This document shows positions 24,459-47,570 of a stretch of DNA of 64,000 nucleotides, one piece after another. Where the stretch lies: assembly GCF_013122565.1 (NCBI RefSeq), contig NZ_CP053258.1; one strand, written 5' to 3'. Origin of the DNA: Escherichia coli. GTDB lineage: Bacteria > Pseudomonadota > Gammaproteobacteria > Enterobacterales > Enterobacteriaceae. The notes below the pieces were generated by a model that worked only from the letters and a program-made list of their open reading frames with translations, searched no databases and was not told the DNA's origin. The position numbers were made by a program, and so were the translations under genes. Each line of letters starts with the position of its first letter. Within the stretch, counting starts at the first letter, position 1.

Positions 24459-26436
24459 GATGGTTTATCCGTAAGATCAACGGTGCGCAGGAAGAAATCC
24501 AGCGTTTCGTCGATGGTTTCCTGCATATCAATTTTCGGCTCCCAGTCCAGGCAGCGGTGGGCATTGCGGATGCTCGGTTTACGATGCTCTACGTCCTGAT
24601 ATCCTTTTCCGTAGTAGCTGCTACTTTCGACAACGCGAAAGCCCGCAAACGGTGGGAAATGATGGCGCAGCGGATGTTTTTCGAAGCTCGCCAGCAGCAT
24701 CTCGCCCAGTTCCTCAATGCTCGCTTCGTTCTCAGGATTGCCAATGTTGATAATTTCGCCGTCGCAGCGATTTCCCGCATTTTCGATAATGCGGTATAAC
24801 GCCTCGATACCATCGCGAATATCAGTAAAGCAGCGTTTTTGTTTTCCGCCATCAATCAGCTTAATCGGTGAACCTTCTACCAGATTGAGAATGAGTTGCG
24901 TAATCGCGCGGGAGCTGCCAATTCGCGCTGCATTAAGGTTATCCAGTCGTGGTCCCATCCAGTTAAACGGGCGGAAGAGGGTGAACTGTAAACCCTCTTT
25001 TTCGCCATAGGCCCAGATAACCCGATCAAGTAATTGTTTTGACACCGAATAAATCCAGCGTGGTTTATTCACCGGGCCGACGATTAAATTAGAATGGTCC
25101 TCATCGAAGTATTTATCGCTACACATCCCATAAACTTCTGAAGTTGATGGGAAGATGATTCGCTTACGGTACTTCACGCAGTAGCGGATAATGCGCAGAT
25201 TCTCTTCAAAATCGAGTTCAAATACGCGCAGCGGGTTGCGGGTATATTCAATCGGCGTGGCTATCGCCACCAGCGGCAAGACGACATCACATTTTTTGAC
25301 GTGATACTCAATCCATTCGGAATGAATACTGATATCGCCTTCGACAAAGTGAAAATGCGGATGATTCAGAAAACGGCTTATCGCATCGCTGCCAATATCC
25401 AGACCGTAAACTTCATAATGATCTTCGCGCAGCAGGCGTTCTGTCAGATGGTTGCCAATAAAGCCATTTACCCCGAGGATGAGTACCCGGGTACGGCGTC
25501 GGGCGGCACAGGCAGGCTGGCTATTCAAGCGTGAACCTTGCACCAGGCCCAGCGTCTGCGCTAATTGCGAGCCCTGCATAGTAATGCCGTCGCCCGCCTG
25601 TCCGGTGACGATTTCCAGCGCGCCATCGCCACAGGCAATCAGCAGTGGCGCAACAGAAATCACGCTCCCCGGCTGCGCTGCGGATGTATGAGGATGTACG
25701 CGTGACGACCAGACGGTGAATTTCTGATTGCCAGCATAGCTGAAGGCACCCGGCCACGGATCGGCAACGGCGCGGACCATGTTATGCAATACGGCTGCCG
25801 GTTTGTGCCACTCGAGGAAGCTATCTTCTGGTGCTCTGCGACCAAAACAGGTGGCTTCGTTCTCGCGTTGGGCGATTTCCAGAATATTAACGTGTTTAAT
25901 GGCGGGTAATGTCTGTTCCAGTAGCTGGCGCGCGGCATGGCACAATTTATGATGCAGCGTAATAGCGATATCGTCTGGCGCAATGGCAATGCGCAGTTGC
26001 GCCACAATGGCCCCGGCATCGGCACGTGTCACCATTCGGTGCAATGTAACGCCCGTTTCCGTTTCACCGTTCACCAGCACCCAGTTCAGCGGCGCGCGAC
26101 CACGATATTTTGGTAACAGCGAACCATGCAGATTAAATGCACCTGCGGGAGCGAGCTGCAAAATTTCGTCGCAAATAAGATGGCGATAATAAAAAGAGAA
26201 AATCACATCTGGCGACAGTTGGGCAATGCGTTCCACCCACAGCGGATGATTAACGTCATCCGGCGCATAAACCGGAATGCCTCTTTCCGCCGCCAGACGA
26301 GCCACCGAACCATAAAAGGCTTTTTCACCGGGATTATCGGTATGGGTAAAAATGGCGCTAATTTCGTAACCGGCAGCCAGCAGGGCTTCAATACCGAGGC
26401 ATCCCATATCGTGGTAGGCAAAAACGACGGTTTTCA

Positions 26437-42137: not shown

Positions 42138-43496
42138 ATGTTGAGTATTTTTAAACCGGCGCCACACAAAGCGCGCTTACCTGCTGCGGAGATCGATCCG
42201 ACTTATCGTCGATTGCGCTGGCAAATTTTCCTGGGGATATTCTTTGGCTATGCTGCTTACTATTTGGTTCGTAAGAACTTTGCGCTCGCTATGCCTTACC
42301 TGGTGGAGCAGGGATTCTCACGCGGTGATTTAGGTTTTGCGCTTTCTGGGATCTCGATCGCCTATGGATTTTCGAAATTCATCATGGGTTCGGTATCGGA
42401 TCGCTCGAATCCGCGCGTTTTCCTGCCCGCAGGTTTGATTCTGGCGGCGGCAGTGATGTTGTTTATGGGCTTTGTGCCATGGGCGACGTCGAGCATTGCG
42501 GTGATGTTTGTACTGTTGTTCCTCTGCGGCTGGTTCCAGGGAATGGGGTGGCCGCCGTGTGGTCGTACTATGGTGCACTGGTGGTCGCAGAAAGAACGTG
42601 GCGGCATTGTGTCAGTATGGAACTGTGCGCACAACGTCGGTGGTGGTATTCCGCCGCTGCTGTTCCTGCTGGGGATGGCCTGGTTCAATGACTGGCACGC
42701 GGCGCTCTATATGCCCGCTTTCTGCGCCATTCTGGTGGCACTATTCGCCTTTGCGATGATGCGCGATACCCCGCAATCCTGTGGTCTGCCGCCGATCGAA
42801 GAGTACAAAAATGATTATCCGGACGACTATAACGAAAAAGCGGAACAGGAGCTGACTGCGAAGCAAATCTTCATGCAGTACGTGCTGCCGAACAAATTGC
42901 TGTGGTACATCGCCATCGCCAACGTGTTCGTTTATCTGCTGCGTTACGGCATCCTCGACTGGTCACCAACTTATCTGAAAGAGGTTAAGCATTTCGCGCT
43001 GGATAAATCCTCCTGGGCCTACTTCCTTTATGAATATGCAGGAATTCCGGGCACCCTGCTGTGTGGATGGATGTCGGATAAAGTCTTCCGTGGCAACCGT
43101 GGGGCAACCGGCGTCTTCTTTATGACACTGGTGACCATCGCGACTATCGTTTACTGGATGAACCCAGCGGGCAATCCGAACGTCGATATGATTTGTATGA
43201 TTGTTATCGGCTTCCTGATTTACGGCCCTGTGATGCTGATCGGTCTGCATGCGCTGGAACTGGCACCGAAAAAAGCGGCAGGTACGGCAGCGGGCTTTAC
43301 CGGGCTGTTTGGTTACCTGGGCGGTTCGGTGGCGGCGAGCGCGATTGTTGGCTATACCGTGGACTTCTTTGGCTGGGATGGCGGCTTTATGGTAATGATT
43401 GGCGGCAGCATTCTGGCGGTTATCTTGTTGATTGTTGTGATGATTGGCGAAAAACGTCGCCATCAGGAATTACTGCAAAAACGCAACGGAGGCTAA
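42138..43496 (+). CDS. glpT: Glycerol-3-phosphate:phosphate antiporter (MFS)
   Basis: 452-aa MFS transporter; RBS GGAGG; synteny. Confidence 0.95.
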
Positions 43497-43500
43497 TGGC

Positions 43501-44577
43501 ATGAAATTGACGCTGAAAAACCTTAGCATGGCGATCATGATGAGTGGAATGATCATGGGAAGCAGTGCAATGGCGGCGGACAGCAACGAAAAAATAGTCA
43601 TCGCCCATCGCGGTGCCAGTGGATATTTGCCGGAGCATACGCTGCCAGCAAAAGCGATGGCGTATGCGCAGGGAGCGGATTATCTTGAACAGGATTTGGT
43701 GATGACCAAAGACGACCATCTGGTTGTTCTGCATGACCATTATCTCGATCGTGTTACTGATGTTGCCGATCGTTTCCCGGATCGGGCGCGCAAAGACGGT
43801 CGTTACTACGCGATAGATTTCACGCTGGATGAAATTAAGTCGCTGAAATTTACCGAAGGTTTCGATATTGAAAACGGTAAAAAAGTGCAGACTTATCCGG
43901 GGCGTTTCCCAATGGGTAAGTCCGACTTTCGGGTGCACACCTTTGAAGAAGAGATTGAATTTGTTCAGGGGTTAAATCACTCTACCGGGAAAAATATCGG
44001 TATCTATCCAGAAATCAAAGCGCCGTGGTTCCATCATCAGGAAGGGAAGGATATTGCGGCAAAAACGCTGGAAGTGCTGAAGAAATATGGTTACACCGGT
44101 AAGGACGATAAAGTTTATTTGCAATGTTTTGATGCTGATGAGCTGAAGCGTATTAAGAATGAGCTGGAACCTAAAATGGGCATGGATCTCAATCTGGTAC
44201 AGCTGATTGCCTATACCGACTGGAATGAAACGCAGCAGAAACAGCCGGATGGAAGCTGGGTTAATTACAACTACGACTGGATGTTTAATCCGGGTGCGAT
44301 GAAACAGGTGGCGGAATATGCTGATGGTATTGGTCCGGATTACCATATGTTGATTGAGGAGACATCGCAGCCGGGTAATATCAAACTCACTGGCATGGTG
44401 CAAGATGCTCAGCAGAATAAACTAGTAGTGCATCCTTATACCGTGCGGTCAGATAAACTGCCTGAATACACTACTGATGTGAATCAGTTATATGATGCTC
44501 TGTATAACAAAGCGGGTGTAAATGGGCTGTTTACTGATTTCCCTGACAAGGCAGTAAAATTTCTTAATAAAGAGTAA
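43501..44577 (+). CDS. glpQ: Periplasmic glycerophosphodiester phosphodiesterase
   Basis: 358 aa from MKLTLKNLSMAIMM... (signal peptide ...SSAMA/AD); GDPD catalytic motif HRGASGYLPEHT. Confidence 0.94.
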   Translation: MKLTLKNLSMAIMMSGMIMGSSAMAADSNEKIVIAHRGASGYLPEHTLPAKAMAYAQGADYLEQDLVMTKDDHLVVLHDHYLDRVTDVADRFPDRARKDGRYYAIDFTLDEIKSLKFTEGFDIENGKKVQTYPGRFPMGKSDFRVHTFEEEIEFVQGLNHSTGKNIGIYPEIKAPWFHHQEGKDIAAKTLEVLKKYGYTGKDDKVYLQCFDADELKRIKNELEPKMGMDLNLVQLIAYTDWNETQQKQPDGSWVNYNYDWMFNPGAMKQVAEYADGIGPDYHMLIEETSQPGNIKLTGMVQDAQQNKLVVHPYTVRSDKLPEYTTDVNQLYDALYNKAGVNGLFTDFPDKAVKFLNKE

Positions 44578-44585
44578 TGCTACTG

Positions 44586-44611
44586 CAGGATGGCGTTCAT
44601 GCGCCATCCTG
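44586..44611. terminator. Hairpin between convergent glpQ and the LysR regulator
   Basis: CAGGATGGCGttcatgCGCCATCCTG. Confidence 0.55.
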
Positions 44612-44618
44612 TCTCACA

Positions 44619-45497
44619 TCAAATTTTTCCACTCTCCACTAATTGTTCCGTGCACATTTGCAGTAAAAACAGTGGGCTGCCTTCTACCGGCTTTTCTTTA
44701 GCCAGCAACGAAATCTGTCGATAGAAGGTTGGTTCGAGAGGAACGGAACACAATTCACCTGCAATGGTTTTCAGAGTTAACTCTGGTAATAAGGCGATAC
44801 CTAATCCCTGTCGAATAAAACTGATCGCTGTATCCGGGTGATTAAATTCATATTTTATCTGCGGGGTAATATTCTTTTCTTTAAATAACGTCATAATGCT
44901 TAATTCATAGCGCCCTTTACTAATAATTAACGATTCACCCATTAGCTCTTCCACTGTAATAGTGCTGCTTTTTGCCAGAGCATGGTCGGGCGGTAACACT
45001 ACGGTGAATTTATCCTGATAAATGGGCACGGAGTACATTCCGCTTACCGGAAAATGAACAAAACCGGCATCAATGGATTCATTCTGAAGCGAATCAATAA
45101 TCGCTGTGCTATTTTCCTCAAAAGGAATAATTTTTATATTCGGATGATGAATTTCAAAGTAGCGAATCACAACCGGTAAGATACAGGCGCAGACGCTGGG
45201 GAAACAACCAAGTCGCAGCGTTCTTTGAGGGTTCTGCTTTTCCTGTTCGGCTATCTCTTTTACTGCGTTAACTTCCCGATTAATGGCGCGCAGATGATGC
45301 ACAATGCGGTGGCCTGCTGTGGTCAGTTGTATAGTTTTACGGCGATCGCGTAACAGTATATTCACGCCAAGTTCTTGTTCGAGGGCAGCAATTGCCTGGC
45401 TTACCGCCGACTGCGTCATGAACAATCGCTTGCTGGCTTCAGTAAAGCCACCGTAATCCAGCACGGCGAGTAAAGAATTTATTTGGGTAAGAGTCAT
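44619..45497 (-). CDS. yfaH: LysR-family transcriptional regulator (intact)
   Basis: 292 aa; N-terminal HTH (FTEASKRLFMTQSAVSQAIAALE) plus LysR substrate-binding domain; symbol from position (K-12 yfaH is a fragment). Confidence 0.75.
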   Translation of the reverse strand: MTLTQINSLLAVLDYGGFTEASKRLFMTQSAVSQAIAALEQELGVNILLRDRRKTIQLTTAGHRIVHHLRAINREVNAVKEIAEQEKQNPQRTLRLGCFPSVCACILPVVIRYFEIHHPNIKIIPFEENSTAIIDSLQNESIDAGFVHFPVSGMYSVPIYQDKFTVVLPPDHALAKSSTITVEELMGESLIISKGRYELSIMTLFKEKNITPQIKYEFNHPDTAISFIRQGLGIALLPELTLKTIAGELCSVPLEPTFYRQISLLAKEKPVEGSPLFLLQMCTEQLVESGKI

Positions 45498-45648
45498 TAG
45501 GGTGTACTAATCAATAATATTAAAACGATTAATTTCTCTAATAGCATGCCGCCATTTATACTTTTGTTCTGCAAAGTACATCACAATTTGACGCAACCGC
45601 AGTAACGGGAGTGTTGTCTGCGTGCGTCATCCTGATAGGCGGTAGGGT

Positions 45649-46839
45649 ATGAAAGAGAAGTTATGGACGAAGGATTTTTGGGCAATAACCATCATCAGCT
45701 TTATTATTTTCTTCGTCTTTTATGTTTTACTAACATTGTTGCCAATTTATATCTCTGACCGCTTACATGCCTCTCCTGATAAAGCCGGTTTGTTGGTGAC
45801 TTTATTTTTAATTGCCGCCATTGTTATTCGCCCCTTTGCCGGGCAATGGGTGGGTAAATATTCGAATAAAACTATTCTGGTGCTCTCTTCTCTGGCCTTT
45901 TTATTGGTCACAGCGTTGTATCCTTTTTGCCACTCAATTGAATCACTACTTTTTATTCGGGTGCTTCATGGTATTACCTTCGGGGTTATCACTACGGTAA
46001 AAGGAACGATTTCCGCGCGGCTGATCCCGGCCTCCCGACGTGGGGAGGGCATCAGTTTTTTCTCCCTGGCAATGGGGCTGGCAATGGTGGTCGGGCCGTG
46101 GATTGGTCTGAATATGGCGCGCTGGGAAGCCTTTAATCTGGCTTTCTGGCTATGCACGGGCGTGGCAGCGGTGGGGATTATCCTGTCGCTGATTATGACA
46201 GTGCCACCGGTTATCAGCCATGCTGATGGTTCAAAGCCGAAAGTGGGCTTCGCCGCCATGTTCGATCGCGCAGCGTTGCCATTTGCGATGGTCACCTTTT
46301 TTATGACCTTTTCGTATGCCGGGGTTTCTGCTTTTCTGGCGCTTTATGCTCGCGAACTTAACCTGATGTCGGCGGCCAGTAATTTCCTGCTTTGCTATGC
46401 CATCTTCCTGATGATCTGCCGTACCTTTACCGGCAATGTCTGCGACAAAAAAGGACCGAAATATGTGGTTTACCCTTGCCTTGTGTTCTTTACGGTAGGA
46501 CTGGTGGTTCTCGGCTACACCCAGGGAAGCATAATGATGGTTATTTCTGGCGCGTTGATTGGTATCGGGTATGGTTCTGTGACGCCAGTTTTTCAGACGC
46601 AGATTATCAGTTCAGTGGAGCCGCATAAAATCGGTGTCGCAAACTCTCTCTTCTTCAATGCGATGGATGCAGGCCTGGCGCTGGGAGCCTTTGTGATGGG
46701 GATGATGGTTGCACATACTGGCTATCGGATGATCTATCTGCTGGGCGCACTATTAGTGGTAGTGGCTGGTGGAGTCTATGCGCTGCAAATGAAGGGTAAA
46801 AGCCCTGTCGCGCTAGTAGTGGCAAAAGAAATTCATTAA
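45649..46839 (+). CDS. MFS transporter (12 TM), divergent from the LysR regulator
   Basis: 396-aa hydrophobic MFS-type translation; substrate not inferable. Confidence 0.8.
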   Translation: MKEKLWTKDFWAITIISFIIFFVFYVLLTLLPIYISDRLHASPDKAGLLVTLFLIAAIVIRPFAGQWVGKYSNKTILVLSSLAFLLVTALYPFCHSIESLLFIRVLHGITFGVITTVKGTISARLIPASRRGEGISFFSLAMGLAMVVGPWIGLNMARWEAFNLAFWLCTGVAAVGIILSLIMTVPPVISHADGSKPKVGFAAMFDRAALPFAMVTFFMTFSYAGVSAFLALYARELNLMSAASNFLLCYAIFLMICRTFTGNVCDKKGPKYVVYPCLVFFTVGLVVLGYTQGSIMMVISGALIGIGYGSVTPVFQTQIISSVEPHKIGVANSLFFNAMDAGLALGAFVMGMMVAHTGYRMIYLLGALLVVVAGGVYALQMKGKSPVALVVAKEIH

Positions 46840-46919
46840 TACGACACGTTTCATTAAGATTTTTCGCAGGTAACCACCTATAGTCATTGTCGTTAATAAA
46901 AAATGACAGGCGATAGGGT

Positions 46920-47570
46920 ATGGCAGTTTCAGCAAAGCACGACGAATTTAATCACTGGTGGGCAACAGAGGGCGACTGGGTTGAAGAGCCTAACTATCGC
47001 CGTAATGGTATGAGCGGGGTGCAATGCGTCGAGCGCAACGGCAAAAAGCTGTATGTAAAGCGCATGACGCATCATCTGTTTCATTCCGTACGTTATCCGT
47101 TCGGCCGACCAACGATTGTCCGTGAGGTTGCGGTAATTAAAGAACTGGAACGGGCCGGTGTCATCGTGCCGAAGATCGTTTTTGGTGAAGCGGTGAAAAT
47201 TGAGGGTGAATGGCGCGCGTTGCTGGTGACTGAAGATATGGCGGGGTTCATCAGCATTGCTGACTGGTATGCCCGGCATGCAGTAACGCCTTATTCTGAC
47301 GAAGTACGGCAAGCCATGTTGAAAGCAGTGGCGCTGGCGTTTAAGAAAATGCATAGCATTAATCGTCAGCATGGCTGTTGTTATGTTCGCCATATCTATG
47401 TGAAAACAGAAGGTAAGGCAGAAGCTGGTTTTCTTGACCTGGAGAAAAGTCGTCGCCGCTTGCGTCGCCATAAAGCGATCAATCATGACTTCCGCCAGCT
47501 GGAAAAATATCTGGAGCCAATTCCCAAAGCGGACTGGGAGCAGGTGAAAGCGTATTACTACGCTATGTAA
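46920..47570 (+). CDS. inaA: Kdo/lipopolysaccharide-kinase-family protein InaA
   Basis: 216-aa translation MAVSAKHDEFNHWWATEGDWVEEPNYRRNGMSG... recognised as InaA. Confidence 0.85.
   Translation: MAVSAKHDEFNHWWATEGDWVEEPNYRRNGMSGVQCVERNGKKLYVKRMTHHLFHSVRYPFGRPTIVREVAVIKELERAGVIVPKIVFGEAVKIEGEWRALLVTEDMAGFISIADWYARHAVTPYSDEVRQAMLKAVALAFKKMHSINRQHGCCYVRHIYVKTEGKAEAGFLDLEKSRRRLRRHKAINHDFRQLEKYLEPIPKADWEQVKAYYYAM

Follow-up and report, generated by a model that had tools for sequence, protein, structure and literature searches.

We showed that the divergent pair of genes between glpQ and inaA in the analysed DNA (a stretch of 64,000 nucleotides of Escherichia coli, hereafter the window) is a locus already published as O-island 97 (OI-97) of EHEC O157:H7 EDL933, with z3494 as the transporter gene and z3495 as the regulator gene (PMC10819331). 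Our results make it likely that this pair is an ancestral, vertically inherited enterobacterial unit which was deleted from K-12 and the majority of E. coli, and in which the regulator would control an exporter through a three-part operator. OI-97 had been called laterally acquired, and its independent acquisition had been inferred from the existence of two carrier clades (PMC10819331). Such lateral acquisition is contradicted by the data presented here.

The components of the locus and its flanks are as follows (positions are those of the window):

43444-44577, plus strand: glpQ, the left flank of the pair
44585-44612: GC-rich hairpin in the gap where glpQ (stop codon at 44577) and the LysR gene (stop codon at 44619) converge
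44619-45497, minus strand: LysR-type regulator of 292 aa, with Pfam HTH_1 and LysR_substrate domains; ortholog of Z3495 of EHEC EDL933
45649-46839, plus strand: MFS transporter of 396 aa with 12 transmembrane helices and a full-length MFS_1 domain; ortholog of Z3494 of EHEC EDL933
46920-47570, plus strand: inaA, the right flank of the pair

A sequence-only reading of this DNA had described an intact divergent LysR/MFS pair with a shared control region of 151 bp. Both statements hold (the spacer between the two genes spans 45498-45648), and the genes had been placed correctly to within a few bases. The relationship with OI-97 (Wang et al. 2024, PMC10819331) is one of orthology: the proteins are 97-98% identical, and both the spacer and the inaA flank are shared. 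In comparison with the copies of O157:H7 strain FRIK944, the identity is 97.3% for the regulator and 98.0% for the transporter. Moreover, the published primers for deletion and complementation of z3494, z3495 and OI-97 match the window at both the start codons and the K-12 junction. The two loci differ in that O157:H7 has a 1.7-kb AT-rich islet between glpQ and the regulator gene, which is absent from the window. The 356-aa orphan ORF of this islet had no match in Pfam, NCBIfam or PADLOC.

The hairpin at 44585-44612 has a twelve-pair stem (dG -22.5 kcal/mol, z = -5.8), and none of 200 shuffled sequences was as stable. It is probably a bidirectional terminator, and the same hairpin is present in MG1655. 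Rfam yielded nothing, either in a permissive search of 44300-47100 or in a search of the whole window at gathering thresholds, which indicates that the spacer contains no known leader or riboswitch.

The regulator contains a LysR-type winged helix-turn-helix (HTH_1, residues 3-63, E=1.3e-17) and an LTTR substrate-binding domain (LysR_substrate, residues 88-267, E=2.8e-35), and can be aligned over its full length with the structures of CysB, BenM and OxyR. All of the named LTTR equivalogs (GltC, CidR, AlsR, CynR, HcaR, OxyR, CysB and others) scored below their NCBIfam cut-offs, the best of them being GltC, of the Gram-positive type, with 127 bits against a cut-off of 350. The NCBIfam model NF007272, which describes a 68-aa YfaH protein, matches residues 226-292 of the regulator (145.9 bits, cut-off 139).

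It had been considered that the transporter might prove to be truncated on closer inspection. This is not so: MFS_1 is matched over positions 2-347 of 347 (E=1.7e-46), and a hydropathy scan identified 12 hydrophobic segments in a 6+6 arrangement, with motif-A-like loops in both halves of the protein. The fifth helix carries the motif GLAMVVGPWIG, which we take to be motif C of the antiporter type. The nearest solved structure by sequence is that of the efflux pump NorA (E=1e-12), although only residues 11-194, i.e. the N-terminal half, are matched. The resemblance to NorA/DHA1-type drug:H+ antiporters consists in the alignable N-terminal six helices and the GP-containing fifth-helix motif, and is limited to half of the transporter's length. 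Most of the best NCBIfam matches are exporter families (CntE, MxcK, Cmx/CmrA, EmrB-type and Tet), but the scores against all curated NCBIfam families, including TIGR00880 at the DHA1 family level (75.5 against 131), fall under the cut-offs. These similarities suggest that the transporter is probably a proton-coupled exporter.

Alternatively, the protein might be a proton symporter importing a nutrient or a signal, whose uptake the regulator would induce when the compound is available. LysR-controlled importers are common, and the C-terminal half of the transporter gives weak matches to importers (aromatic acid:H+ symport, sialate, MhpT and the lactate transporter SfMCT). However, catabolic enzymes linked to the pair were found in none of the genera examined, the fifth-helix motif is one typical of antiporters, and it is NorA and the exporter families that score best. 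We consider import unlikely, and export the more probable direction of transport.

The assignment of the transporter to a known subfamily was also examined. It has been called “MFS_YfcJ” (PMC10819331), and PRK05122 and PRK12382, aligned over the whole profile, are indeed its top named MFS subfamilies. The scores (112 and 84 bits) are nevertheless far under the respective cut-offs (374 and 364 bits), and BLASTP against MG1655 YfcJ gave only 25% identity over 119 residues (E=0.001), so that membership of the YfcJ/YhhS subfamily was rejected.

The spacer contains a series of conserved elements, which could serve as the operator and the transporter promoter:

45497-45512: candidate operator site 1, ATTAG-N6-CTAAT, overlapping the regulator start codon
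45519-45533: candidate operator site 2, the perfect palindrome ATTAAAACGATTAAT (ATTAA-N5-TTAAT)
45529-45543: candidate operator site 3, ATTAA-N5-CTAAT, sharing a half-site with site 2 at an offset of 10 bp
45557-45562, plus strand: TATACT, candidate -10 hexamer of the transporter promoter
45580-45585: ATCACA block, whose core TCACA is invariant in a 25-sequence alignment (A2)

The T-N11-A LysR box sought by the sequence-only reading is present: it is TTAAAACGATTAA at 45520-45532, within the palindrome of site 2, and it has the dyad symmetry expected of an LTTR site. An unaltered site 2 is present in 28 of the 30 orthologous loci, which range from Escherichia to Leminorella. In 22 of the 23 loci where our script placed the regulator start codon, the centre of the site is 29 bp away from that codon, the single exception being anchored on an adjacent dyad. 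The window of 64 kb contains the ATTAA-N5-TTAAT pattern two times, whereas 0.09 occurrences would be expected by chance. Site 1, the centre of which is 21.5 bp from that of site 2, is perfect in 21 and has one mismatch in 8 of the 30 loci; for site 3, an imperfect palindrome, these numbers are 24 and 5. With centres spaced by 21.5 and 10 bp, all three sites would lie on the same side of the helix.

A generic promoter and terminator scan of the spacer revealed no strong sigma-70 site. In a relaxed scan TATACT was the top plus-strand candidate (the candidates match only 8 of 12 positions), and the sequence at its -35 position (TTCTCT, 45534-45539) is poor. The assignment of the transporter promoter is a prediction from conservation: in 29 of the 30 loci a TAnnnT hexamer and the centre of site 2 are separated by 31-32 bp, and this spacing is fixed although the distance to the transporter ATG ranges from 123 to 190 bp (a spread of 67 bp). 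An exact ATCACA is located upstream of the transporter gene in 26 of the 30 loci. Its distance from the centre of site 2 is 54 bp in the window and differs from this by no more than a few bp in most other loci, but it is 110 bp in two Citrobacter genomes, which indicates that the block is not rigidly tied to the operator. Two readings of this block were tried. The invariant TGTGAT/ATCACA as a CRP half-site was rejected by eye, since alignment A2 shows no conservation of the second half-site, while its role as the -35 element of the regulator promoter is weakened by the 56-bp insertion before the operator in the two Citrobacter genomes.

On the basis of this arrangement we propose that a tetramer of the regulator would occupy the three-part operator, which would run from the regulator's own start codon to 14 bp before a transporter -10 hexamer with a poor -35. 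If transcription starts about 7 bp after this -10, near 45569, the centres of sites 1, 2 and 3 would be placed near -64, -43 and -33, i.e. in the usual layout of a LysR recognition site followed by two alternative activation sites. On binding of a small-molecule co-inducer, the distal dimer would leave site 3 for site 2, which would free the -35 region and activate transcription of the transporter gene; the regulator's own gene would be repressed when these sites are occupied. The transporter would then most likely export the co-inducer, or a related molecule, in exchange for protons. The most perfect palindrome lies at about -43, and not at the canonical -65, so that transcription may start elsewhere, or sites 1 and 2 may have other roles, than the model supposes. 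A LysR gene divergent from a single MFS gene, with an operator in the spacer, is presumably also the arrangement of PunR-PunC (YdhB-YdhC) and YnfL-YnfM of E. coli. The comparison made here is one of layout, and the ligands of these systems are uninformative in the present case.

A different role of the regulator has to be weighed against this model. Its main function may be global or virulence regulation, through rcsF and LEE, with the transporter not its target and the adjacency of the two genes merely historical. In EHEC, deletion of z3495 lowered LEE expression, adherence and colonisation, whereas deletion of z3494 had no phenotype in adherence, colonisation or LEE assays, and a fragment of the rcsF promoter was retarded by the regulator in a gel-shift experiment (PMC10819331). 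The phenotype of the z3495 deletion, together with the lack of one for z3494, indicates that the regulator has outputs besides the transporter. Its effects on rcsF and LEE expression have been reported in EHEC only (PMC10819331). Against such a role as the main one, the two genes are kept together, with the conserved operator fixed beside the transporter -10, in genera which have no LEE. The rcsF gel-shift fragment (derived from MG1655) contains no match to ATTAA-N5-TTAAT within two mismatches. Furthermore, the ChIP-seq enrichments amounted to only about 2.3-fold (log2 of about 1.2-1.8) (PMC10819331). The peaks are given in MG1655 coordinates (that of glpA, 2,352,683-2,353,187, falls inside MG1655 glpA), and the spacer is absent from K-12, so the regulator's own spacer could not be scored. 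We therefore regard a mainly global role as improbable, and retain the model in which the adjacent transporter gene is controlled from the spacer.

The distribution of the locus was determined in 5,426 complete E. coli genomes, in which three allelic states were recognised at a single site. The interior of the pair is kept in 1,232 genomes (23%), while 3,132 (58%) carry the scar known from K-12 and 1,057 (19%) a different, complete deletion (the S88-type state). The locus is thus strain-variable, as the sequence-only reading had supposed; the other case that it had considered, an intact two-gene unit in K-12 and most E. coli, is not what we found. The lineage of the window itself differs by about 3% from all complete E. 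coli genomes. The K-12 deletion is defined as follows:

44863-46741: segment of 1,879 bp missing from K-12-type genomes, identified by BLAST against the locus of J53 (K-12), with the junction read directly

A 7-bp microhomology, TATCTGC, is present at 44856-44862 and 46735-46741, and the deletion ends are equivalent anywhere within it. The ends of both genes are retained in K-12: a fragment of the regulator gene (yfaH) and a 3' stub of the transporter gene, of which about 100 bp remain. The yfaH pseudogene (b2238), the only feature annotated between inaA and glpQ in MG1655, corresponds to the last 68-81 codons (approximately) of the window's regulator gene; in J53 a LysR fragment and a second fragment, both devoid of the N-terminus, are annotated. 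K-12 therefore lacks the DNA-binding domain of the regulator, most of its effector domain and the whole spacer. The view that the window carries the undeleted form proved right. The K-12 map on which it was based was correct with regard to the yfaH pseudogene, but had omitted the remaining stub of the transporter gene. For the 103-bp spacer of the S88-type genomes, no similarity could be detected either with the pair or with the tested outgroup loci. We have shown, therefore, that E. coli lineages lost the pair by deletion at least twice (K-12-type and S88-type).

We have also shown that some carriers inactivated the pair through stop codons or IS1 insertion. The regulator is pseudogenised in 4 of 14 sampled E. 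coli carriers, both genes are broken in E. coli 042, and IS1 interrupts the locus in strain 755. In the EC1515-type genomes, an apparent allele replacement was noted. These cases raise the question of whether the copy in the window is likewise a decaying, non-functional remnant heading to loss. This is very unlikely, since both ORFs are complete and have retained their conserved starts together with all motifs of their families, the operator is intact, and dN/dS between the window and the E. coli alleles is 0.08-0.10. The two genes of the window are intact and under purifying selection.

The pair also occurs in other enterobacteria. Genes for proteins of 292 and 396 aa are located with the glp genes on one side and yfaE-nrdBA on the other in Salmonella, Klebsiella, Kluyvera, Citrobacter, Pseudocitrobacter, Superficieibacter and Pluralibacter, as well as in Escherichia sp. 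EC7003, E1V33 and E. whittamii. Phytobacter has synteny on the nrd side and a rearranged left flank, and in Leminorella the transporter gene alone could be aligned with the window. In the cryptic Escherichia lineages the DNA identity of the pair equals that of its flanks, within single collinear alignments, and all comparisons gave dN/dS values of 0.03-0.13 for the two genes. These observations concern Escherichia and outgroups other than E. albertii and E. fergusonii. Synteny in many genera, combined with divergence equal to that of the flanks, indicates that presence of the pair is ancestral and that its variation results from losses; the earlier description of it as an insert was wrong. Lateral acquisition, as an islet that entered certain E. 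coli lineages, could explain the patchy occurrence in this species, the lower G+C content of the pair (46.0% against 51.5% for the window) and the two carrier clades read as independent acquisition (PMC10819331), but it is hardly tenable in view of the K-12 remnants of both genes at a microhomology junction (a deletion signature), the occupation of the same site in Salmonella, Citrobacter, Kluyvera, Klebsiella and at least four further genera, the flank-like divergence in cryptic Escherichia, the dN/dS of about 0.05-0.1 across genera, and the absence of any integrase, transposase, tRNA or direct repeats from the borders of the pair.

Copies were also noted outside the enterobacteria. The Desulfosporosinus copy (55% identical) is accompanied by a divergent LysR gene too, but that regulator is only 24% identical; the neighbouring genes there (sulfatase maturase and hydrolase) are uninformative on the substrate. 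The copy in Bacillus sp. EB600 appears to be truncated. Nothing useful was found in the literature on yfaH or STM2280/STM2281.

To conclude, the analysis provides clean counts for the three allelic states of a single site across 5,426 genomes, and corrects an evolutionary claim: OI-97, presented as an acquired virulence regulator of EHEC, is an ancestral locus which was deleted in K-12. It should be borne in mind that “O-islands”, being defined against K-12, can be K-12 deletions. In addition, z3495 and z3494 gain a precise model of a conserved operator and a candidate promoter, which lay outside the reach of ChIP-seq in K-12 coordinates. The practical value of these results is modest, but the model offers a direct handle for finding the co-inducer.

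More tentatively, the pair may be dedicated to sensing one small molecule and pumping it out, a function which most Enterobacteriaceae would have retained for no less time than the family has existed. Repeated loss of the pair in E. coli (in the K-12-type majority, in the S88-type group and in several pseudogenised carriers) might then reflect relaxed selection on the handling of this compound, and the effect on rcsF and LEE in EHEC a secondary recruitment of an ancestral regulator rather than the acquisition of a foreign one, while the three-site operator, two sites of which overlap at an offset of 10 bp, could be a clean natural example of the sliding-dimer mechanism of LysR activation.

Both open reading frames of the divergent pair between glpQ and inaA were located as the sequence-only reading had described them, intact and 151 bp apart. 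The transporter is not truncated, since it carries a full-length MFS_1 domain and twelve hydrophobic segments, arranged 6+6 in a hydropathy scan. On the flanks, the last base of glpQ is 44577 and the first of inaA is 46920, and the borders of the pair contain neither mobility genes nor tRNA genes nor repeats.

Gene pair and adjacent hairpin
44619-45497, minus strand: LysR-type regulator, 292 aa (ORF with LysR helix-turn-helix and LysR substrate-binding domains)
45649-46839, plus strand: MFS transporter, 396 aa (ORF, full-length MFS_1)
44585-44612: strong hairpin in the gap between glpQ and the regulator gene, whose 3' ends converge (dG -22.5 kcal/mol, z = -5.8)

Salmonella, Klebsiella, Kluyvera and others have relatives of the transporter (83-92% identity, all named just "MFS transporter"). 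Salmonella enterica has the gene order glpT-glpQ-LysR-MFS-yfaE-nrdB-nrdA; Klebsiella and Kluyvera have glpCBA-LysR-MFS-yfaE-nrdB-nrdA. In a wider scan of one genome per species, the pair turned up in cryptic Escherichia (three lineages), Salmonella (two subspecies) and several Citrobacter, as well as in Kluyvera, Klebsiella, Pseudocitrobacter, Superficieibacter, Phytobacter, Pluralibacter and Leminorella. The nrd flank is as in the window at all scanned loci except that of Leminorella, where the transporter gene is the only part that aligns to the window; the glp side aligns in most of them, and the left flank of Phytobacter aligns to another part of the window. Each cryptic Escherichia locus aligns to the window as a single collinear stretch, with equal identity across the pair and its flanks. 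The 21 intact comparison loci all encode a regulator of 289-295 aa, and 21 of 22 encode a transporter of 396 aa, that of Leminorella having 393 aa; dN/dS values for the window genes against the comparison loci are 0.03-0.13. The shared site, the equal identity of the flanks, the conserved lengths, the low dN/dS and the clean borders demonstrate that presence of the pair is the ancestral state, and that the variation in E. coli arose by loss. The idea of a strain-variable insert must therefore be abandoned, since the same site is occupied in other genera and the K-12 state is a deletion scar. In other genera the transporter gene directly adjoins yfaE (except in one Pseudocitrobacter assembly); inaA is the Escherichia-restricted gene at the glp/nrd site.

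The strain variability itself was borne out by a census of 5,426 complete E. coli genomes, in which three states (adding up to 5,421) were distinguished: the K-12 junction in 3,132 genomes (58%), the S88-type spacer in 1,057 (19%) and the interior of the pair in 1,232 (23%). An intact pair is thus not the property of K-12 and most E. coli. Among 14 carriers inspected, both genes were intact in 10 (including O157:H7) and the regulator was broken in four. Both genes are broken in E. coli 042, and strain 755 contains IS1 within the locus.

The window does represent the undeleted form of the K-12 yfaH site, as had been proposed: the NCBIfam YfaH model (68 aa) matches regulator residues 226-292 above its cut-off, and alignment with the K-12 derivative J53 revealed a single 1,879-bp deletion (44863-46741), whose ends lie at the 7-bp repeat TATCTGC (44856-44862 and 46735-46741). 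The yfaH pseudogene is the sole annotation between inaA and glpQ in MG1655, in agreement with the earlier reading, which had K-12 retaining just this LysR fragment; that part did not hold, because deletion between the repeats left the 3' ends of both genes. RefSeq accordingly annotates two fragments in J53, one LysR and one other, each without its N-terminus. The survival of both 3' ends marks the site as a deletion scar, as opposed to an empty insertion site. In strain S88 a 103-bp sequence takes the place of the whole region from 44578 to 46820, and no similarity between it and the pair was detected. The E. coli polymorphism is the outcome of at least two independent deletions together with point inactivations.

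Many carriers contain an extra islet of 1.7 kb and 33.8% G+C, bounded by the glpQ terminator and the regulator stop codon, as in E. coli MLI106K1 (L003:1812-3523) and O157:H7 FRIK944 (L055:1001-2757); the window (about 44610) is devoid of it. Its content is one 356-aa orphan ORF without a match in Pfam, NCBIfam or PADLOC. O157:H7 has this ORF intact (WP_001301786.1), and 042, MLI106K1 and UTME-7 have frameshifted copies. Unlike the LysR-MFS pair, this islet looks like a true insertion. The annotation of FRIK944 gives glpQ (L055:2758-3834) as a pseudogene, interrupted by an internal stop. About 99 genomes fall within an 80-90% identity band, including E. coli EC1515, which has a mosaic allele: its regulator protein is only 82.9% identical to that of the window (dS 1.7) and its spacer is 13 bp longer, yet its transporter shares one accession with that of O157:H7 (WP_000660231.1), which suggests a recombination breakpoint within or near the spacer. 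The window itself shows an even 95.7-97.7% identity to E. coli GF43 across 40 kb (24311-64000); among complete E. coli genomes, identity to it reaches at most about 98% at the locus and 96.6% over nrdAB-yfaL, and the lineage is probably a divergent Escherichia near the species boundary. A 3.5-kb contig labelled "MAG: Collinsella sp." (JAIJJM010000334.1) is 96.9% identical to 44607-46232 and is therefore Escherichia DNA, almost certainly mis-binned in an actinobacterial metagenome-assembled genome.

When spacers from 25 genomes in more than ten genera were aligned, a near-invariant block emerged that adjoins the regulator start codon and resolves into three dyads.

Predicted operator and promoter elements of the spacer
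45497-45512: site 1, ATTAG-N6-CTAAT (30 orthologous loci: 21 perfect, 8 with one mismatch)
45519-45533: site 2, ATTAA-N5-TTAAT, a perfect palindrome (28 of 30 perfect, 2 with one mismatch)
45529-45543: site 3, ATTAA-N5-CTAAT (24 of 30 perfect, 5 with one mismatch)
45557-45562: TAnnnT hexamer, TATACT in the window (31-32 bp from the site 2 centre in 29 of 30 loci)
45580-45599: ATCACA (45580-45585), then TTTGACGCA, conserved from Escherichia to Leminorella (core TCACA invariant in the 25 aligned spacers)

The T-N11-A LysR box sought in the spacer is present at 45520-45532, inside site 2. The regulator ATG is 29 bp from the centre of site 2 in 22 of the 23 loci whose start codon was located by script (the exception is a locus anchored on a neighbouring dyad), and the transporter ATG is 123 to 190 bp from it. 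The centres are spaced by 21.5 bp (sites 1-2) and 10 bp (sites 2-3), which places all three on one helix face. Chance predicts 0.09 ATTAA-N5-TTAAT matches per window; the only other one, ATTAACGTGTTTAAT at 25886-25900, falls inside arnA (by collinearity with GF43) and is thus probably fortuitous. The fixed distance of the TAnnnT hexamer, the poor -35 match and the confinement of length variation to the part downstream are best read, from sequence comparison, as a -10 element of a candidate activator-dependent transporter promoter, followed by a variable 5' untranslated region. With the transporter start near 45569, sites 1, 2 and 3 would be centred near -64, -43 and -33. LysR regulators typically use one recognition site and two alternative activation sites, and the three dyads may correspond to these. 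The distance of ATCACA from the operator is not fixed: most correctly anchored loci have 51-54 bp, and two Citrobacter genomes have 110 bp. This block could be a 5'-UTR element, a site of a second regulator, or a piece of the regulator promoter.

The pair is O-island 97 (OI-97) of E. coli O157:H7 EDL933, already known and with published regulator work: a region of 2,006 bp that comprises z3494 (MFS) and z3495 (LTTR) (Wang et al., PMC10819331). The primers of that study identify the locus as the same: the window regulator gene begins with exactly the sequence of the complementation primer ATGACTCTTACCCAAATAAATTCT, and the deletion primers for z3495, z3494 and OI-97 match, respectively, sequence through the ATTAA-N5-TTAAT palindrome, 45609-45648 and the right-hand K-12 junction. 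Deletion of z3495, and not of z3494, reduces LEE expression, adherence and mouse colonisation, and the regulator shifts an rcsF promoter fragment (PMC10819331). When placed on MG1655 by the published primers, this fragment contains no ATTAA-N5-TTAAT match within two mismatches. The ChIP-seq peak coordinates (PMC10819331, Supplementary Table S4) fit MG1655, not EDL933: the glpA peak (2,352,683-2,353,187) falls within MG1655 glpA (2,352,647-2,354,275), and the glpB and glpC peaks are also at MG1655 positions. O157:H7-specific sequences could therefore not appear as peaks, and the regulator's own predicted operator could not be scored, since K-12 does not contain the spacer. The listed enrichments are all about 2.3- to 3.5-fold (PMC10819331); the peaks are mostly of low enrichment and in highly expressed genes. 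OI-97 was read as laterally acquired (PMC10819331), which the synteny and the K-12 scar contradict.

The transporter scored below every curated NCBIfam cut-off (best subfamilies: YfcJ-type, 112 bits against 374; YhhS-type, 84 against 364), and is 25% identical to MG1655 YfcJ over 119 residues. Among solved structures the transporter is closest in sequence to the efflux pump NorA (N-terminal half), its fifth helix contains GLAMVVGPWIG, which we take to be an antiporter-type motif, and exporters form the majority of its NCBIfam family matches; no catabolic genes linked to the pair were found in Salmonella, Klebsiella or Kluyvera. These features favour a proton-coupled exporter, with an importer as a real alternative. 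The regulator was below the cut-off for all named LysR equivalogs (NCBIfam), so its co-inducer could not be inferred. Firmicutes transporters from Desulfosporosinus sp. FKB (L033:2995-5212) and Bacillus sp. EB600 (L035) are 55% identical to that of the window, against 28-34% for the remaining Bacillota matches. The Desulfosporosinus gene also has a divergent LysR gene, of a different lineage (24% identity). These matches suggest that the transporter moved between phyla long ago.

To conclude, the core of the sequence-only reading, an undeleted form of the yfaH site, stands; its "insert" does not, and the pair itself had already been published as OI-97. What our analysis adds is the polarity of the change (ancestral presence and repeated loss), the three-state census and a model of a conserved predicted operator and promoter.
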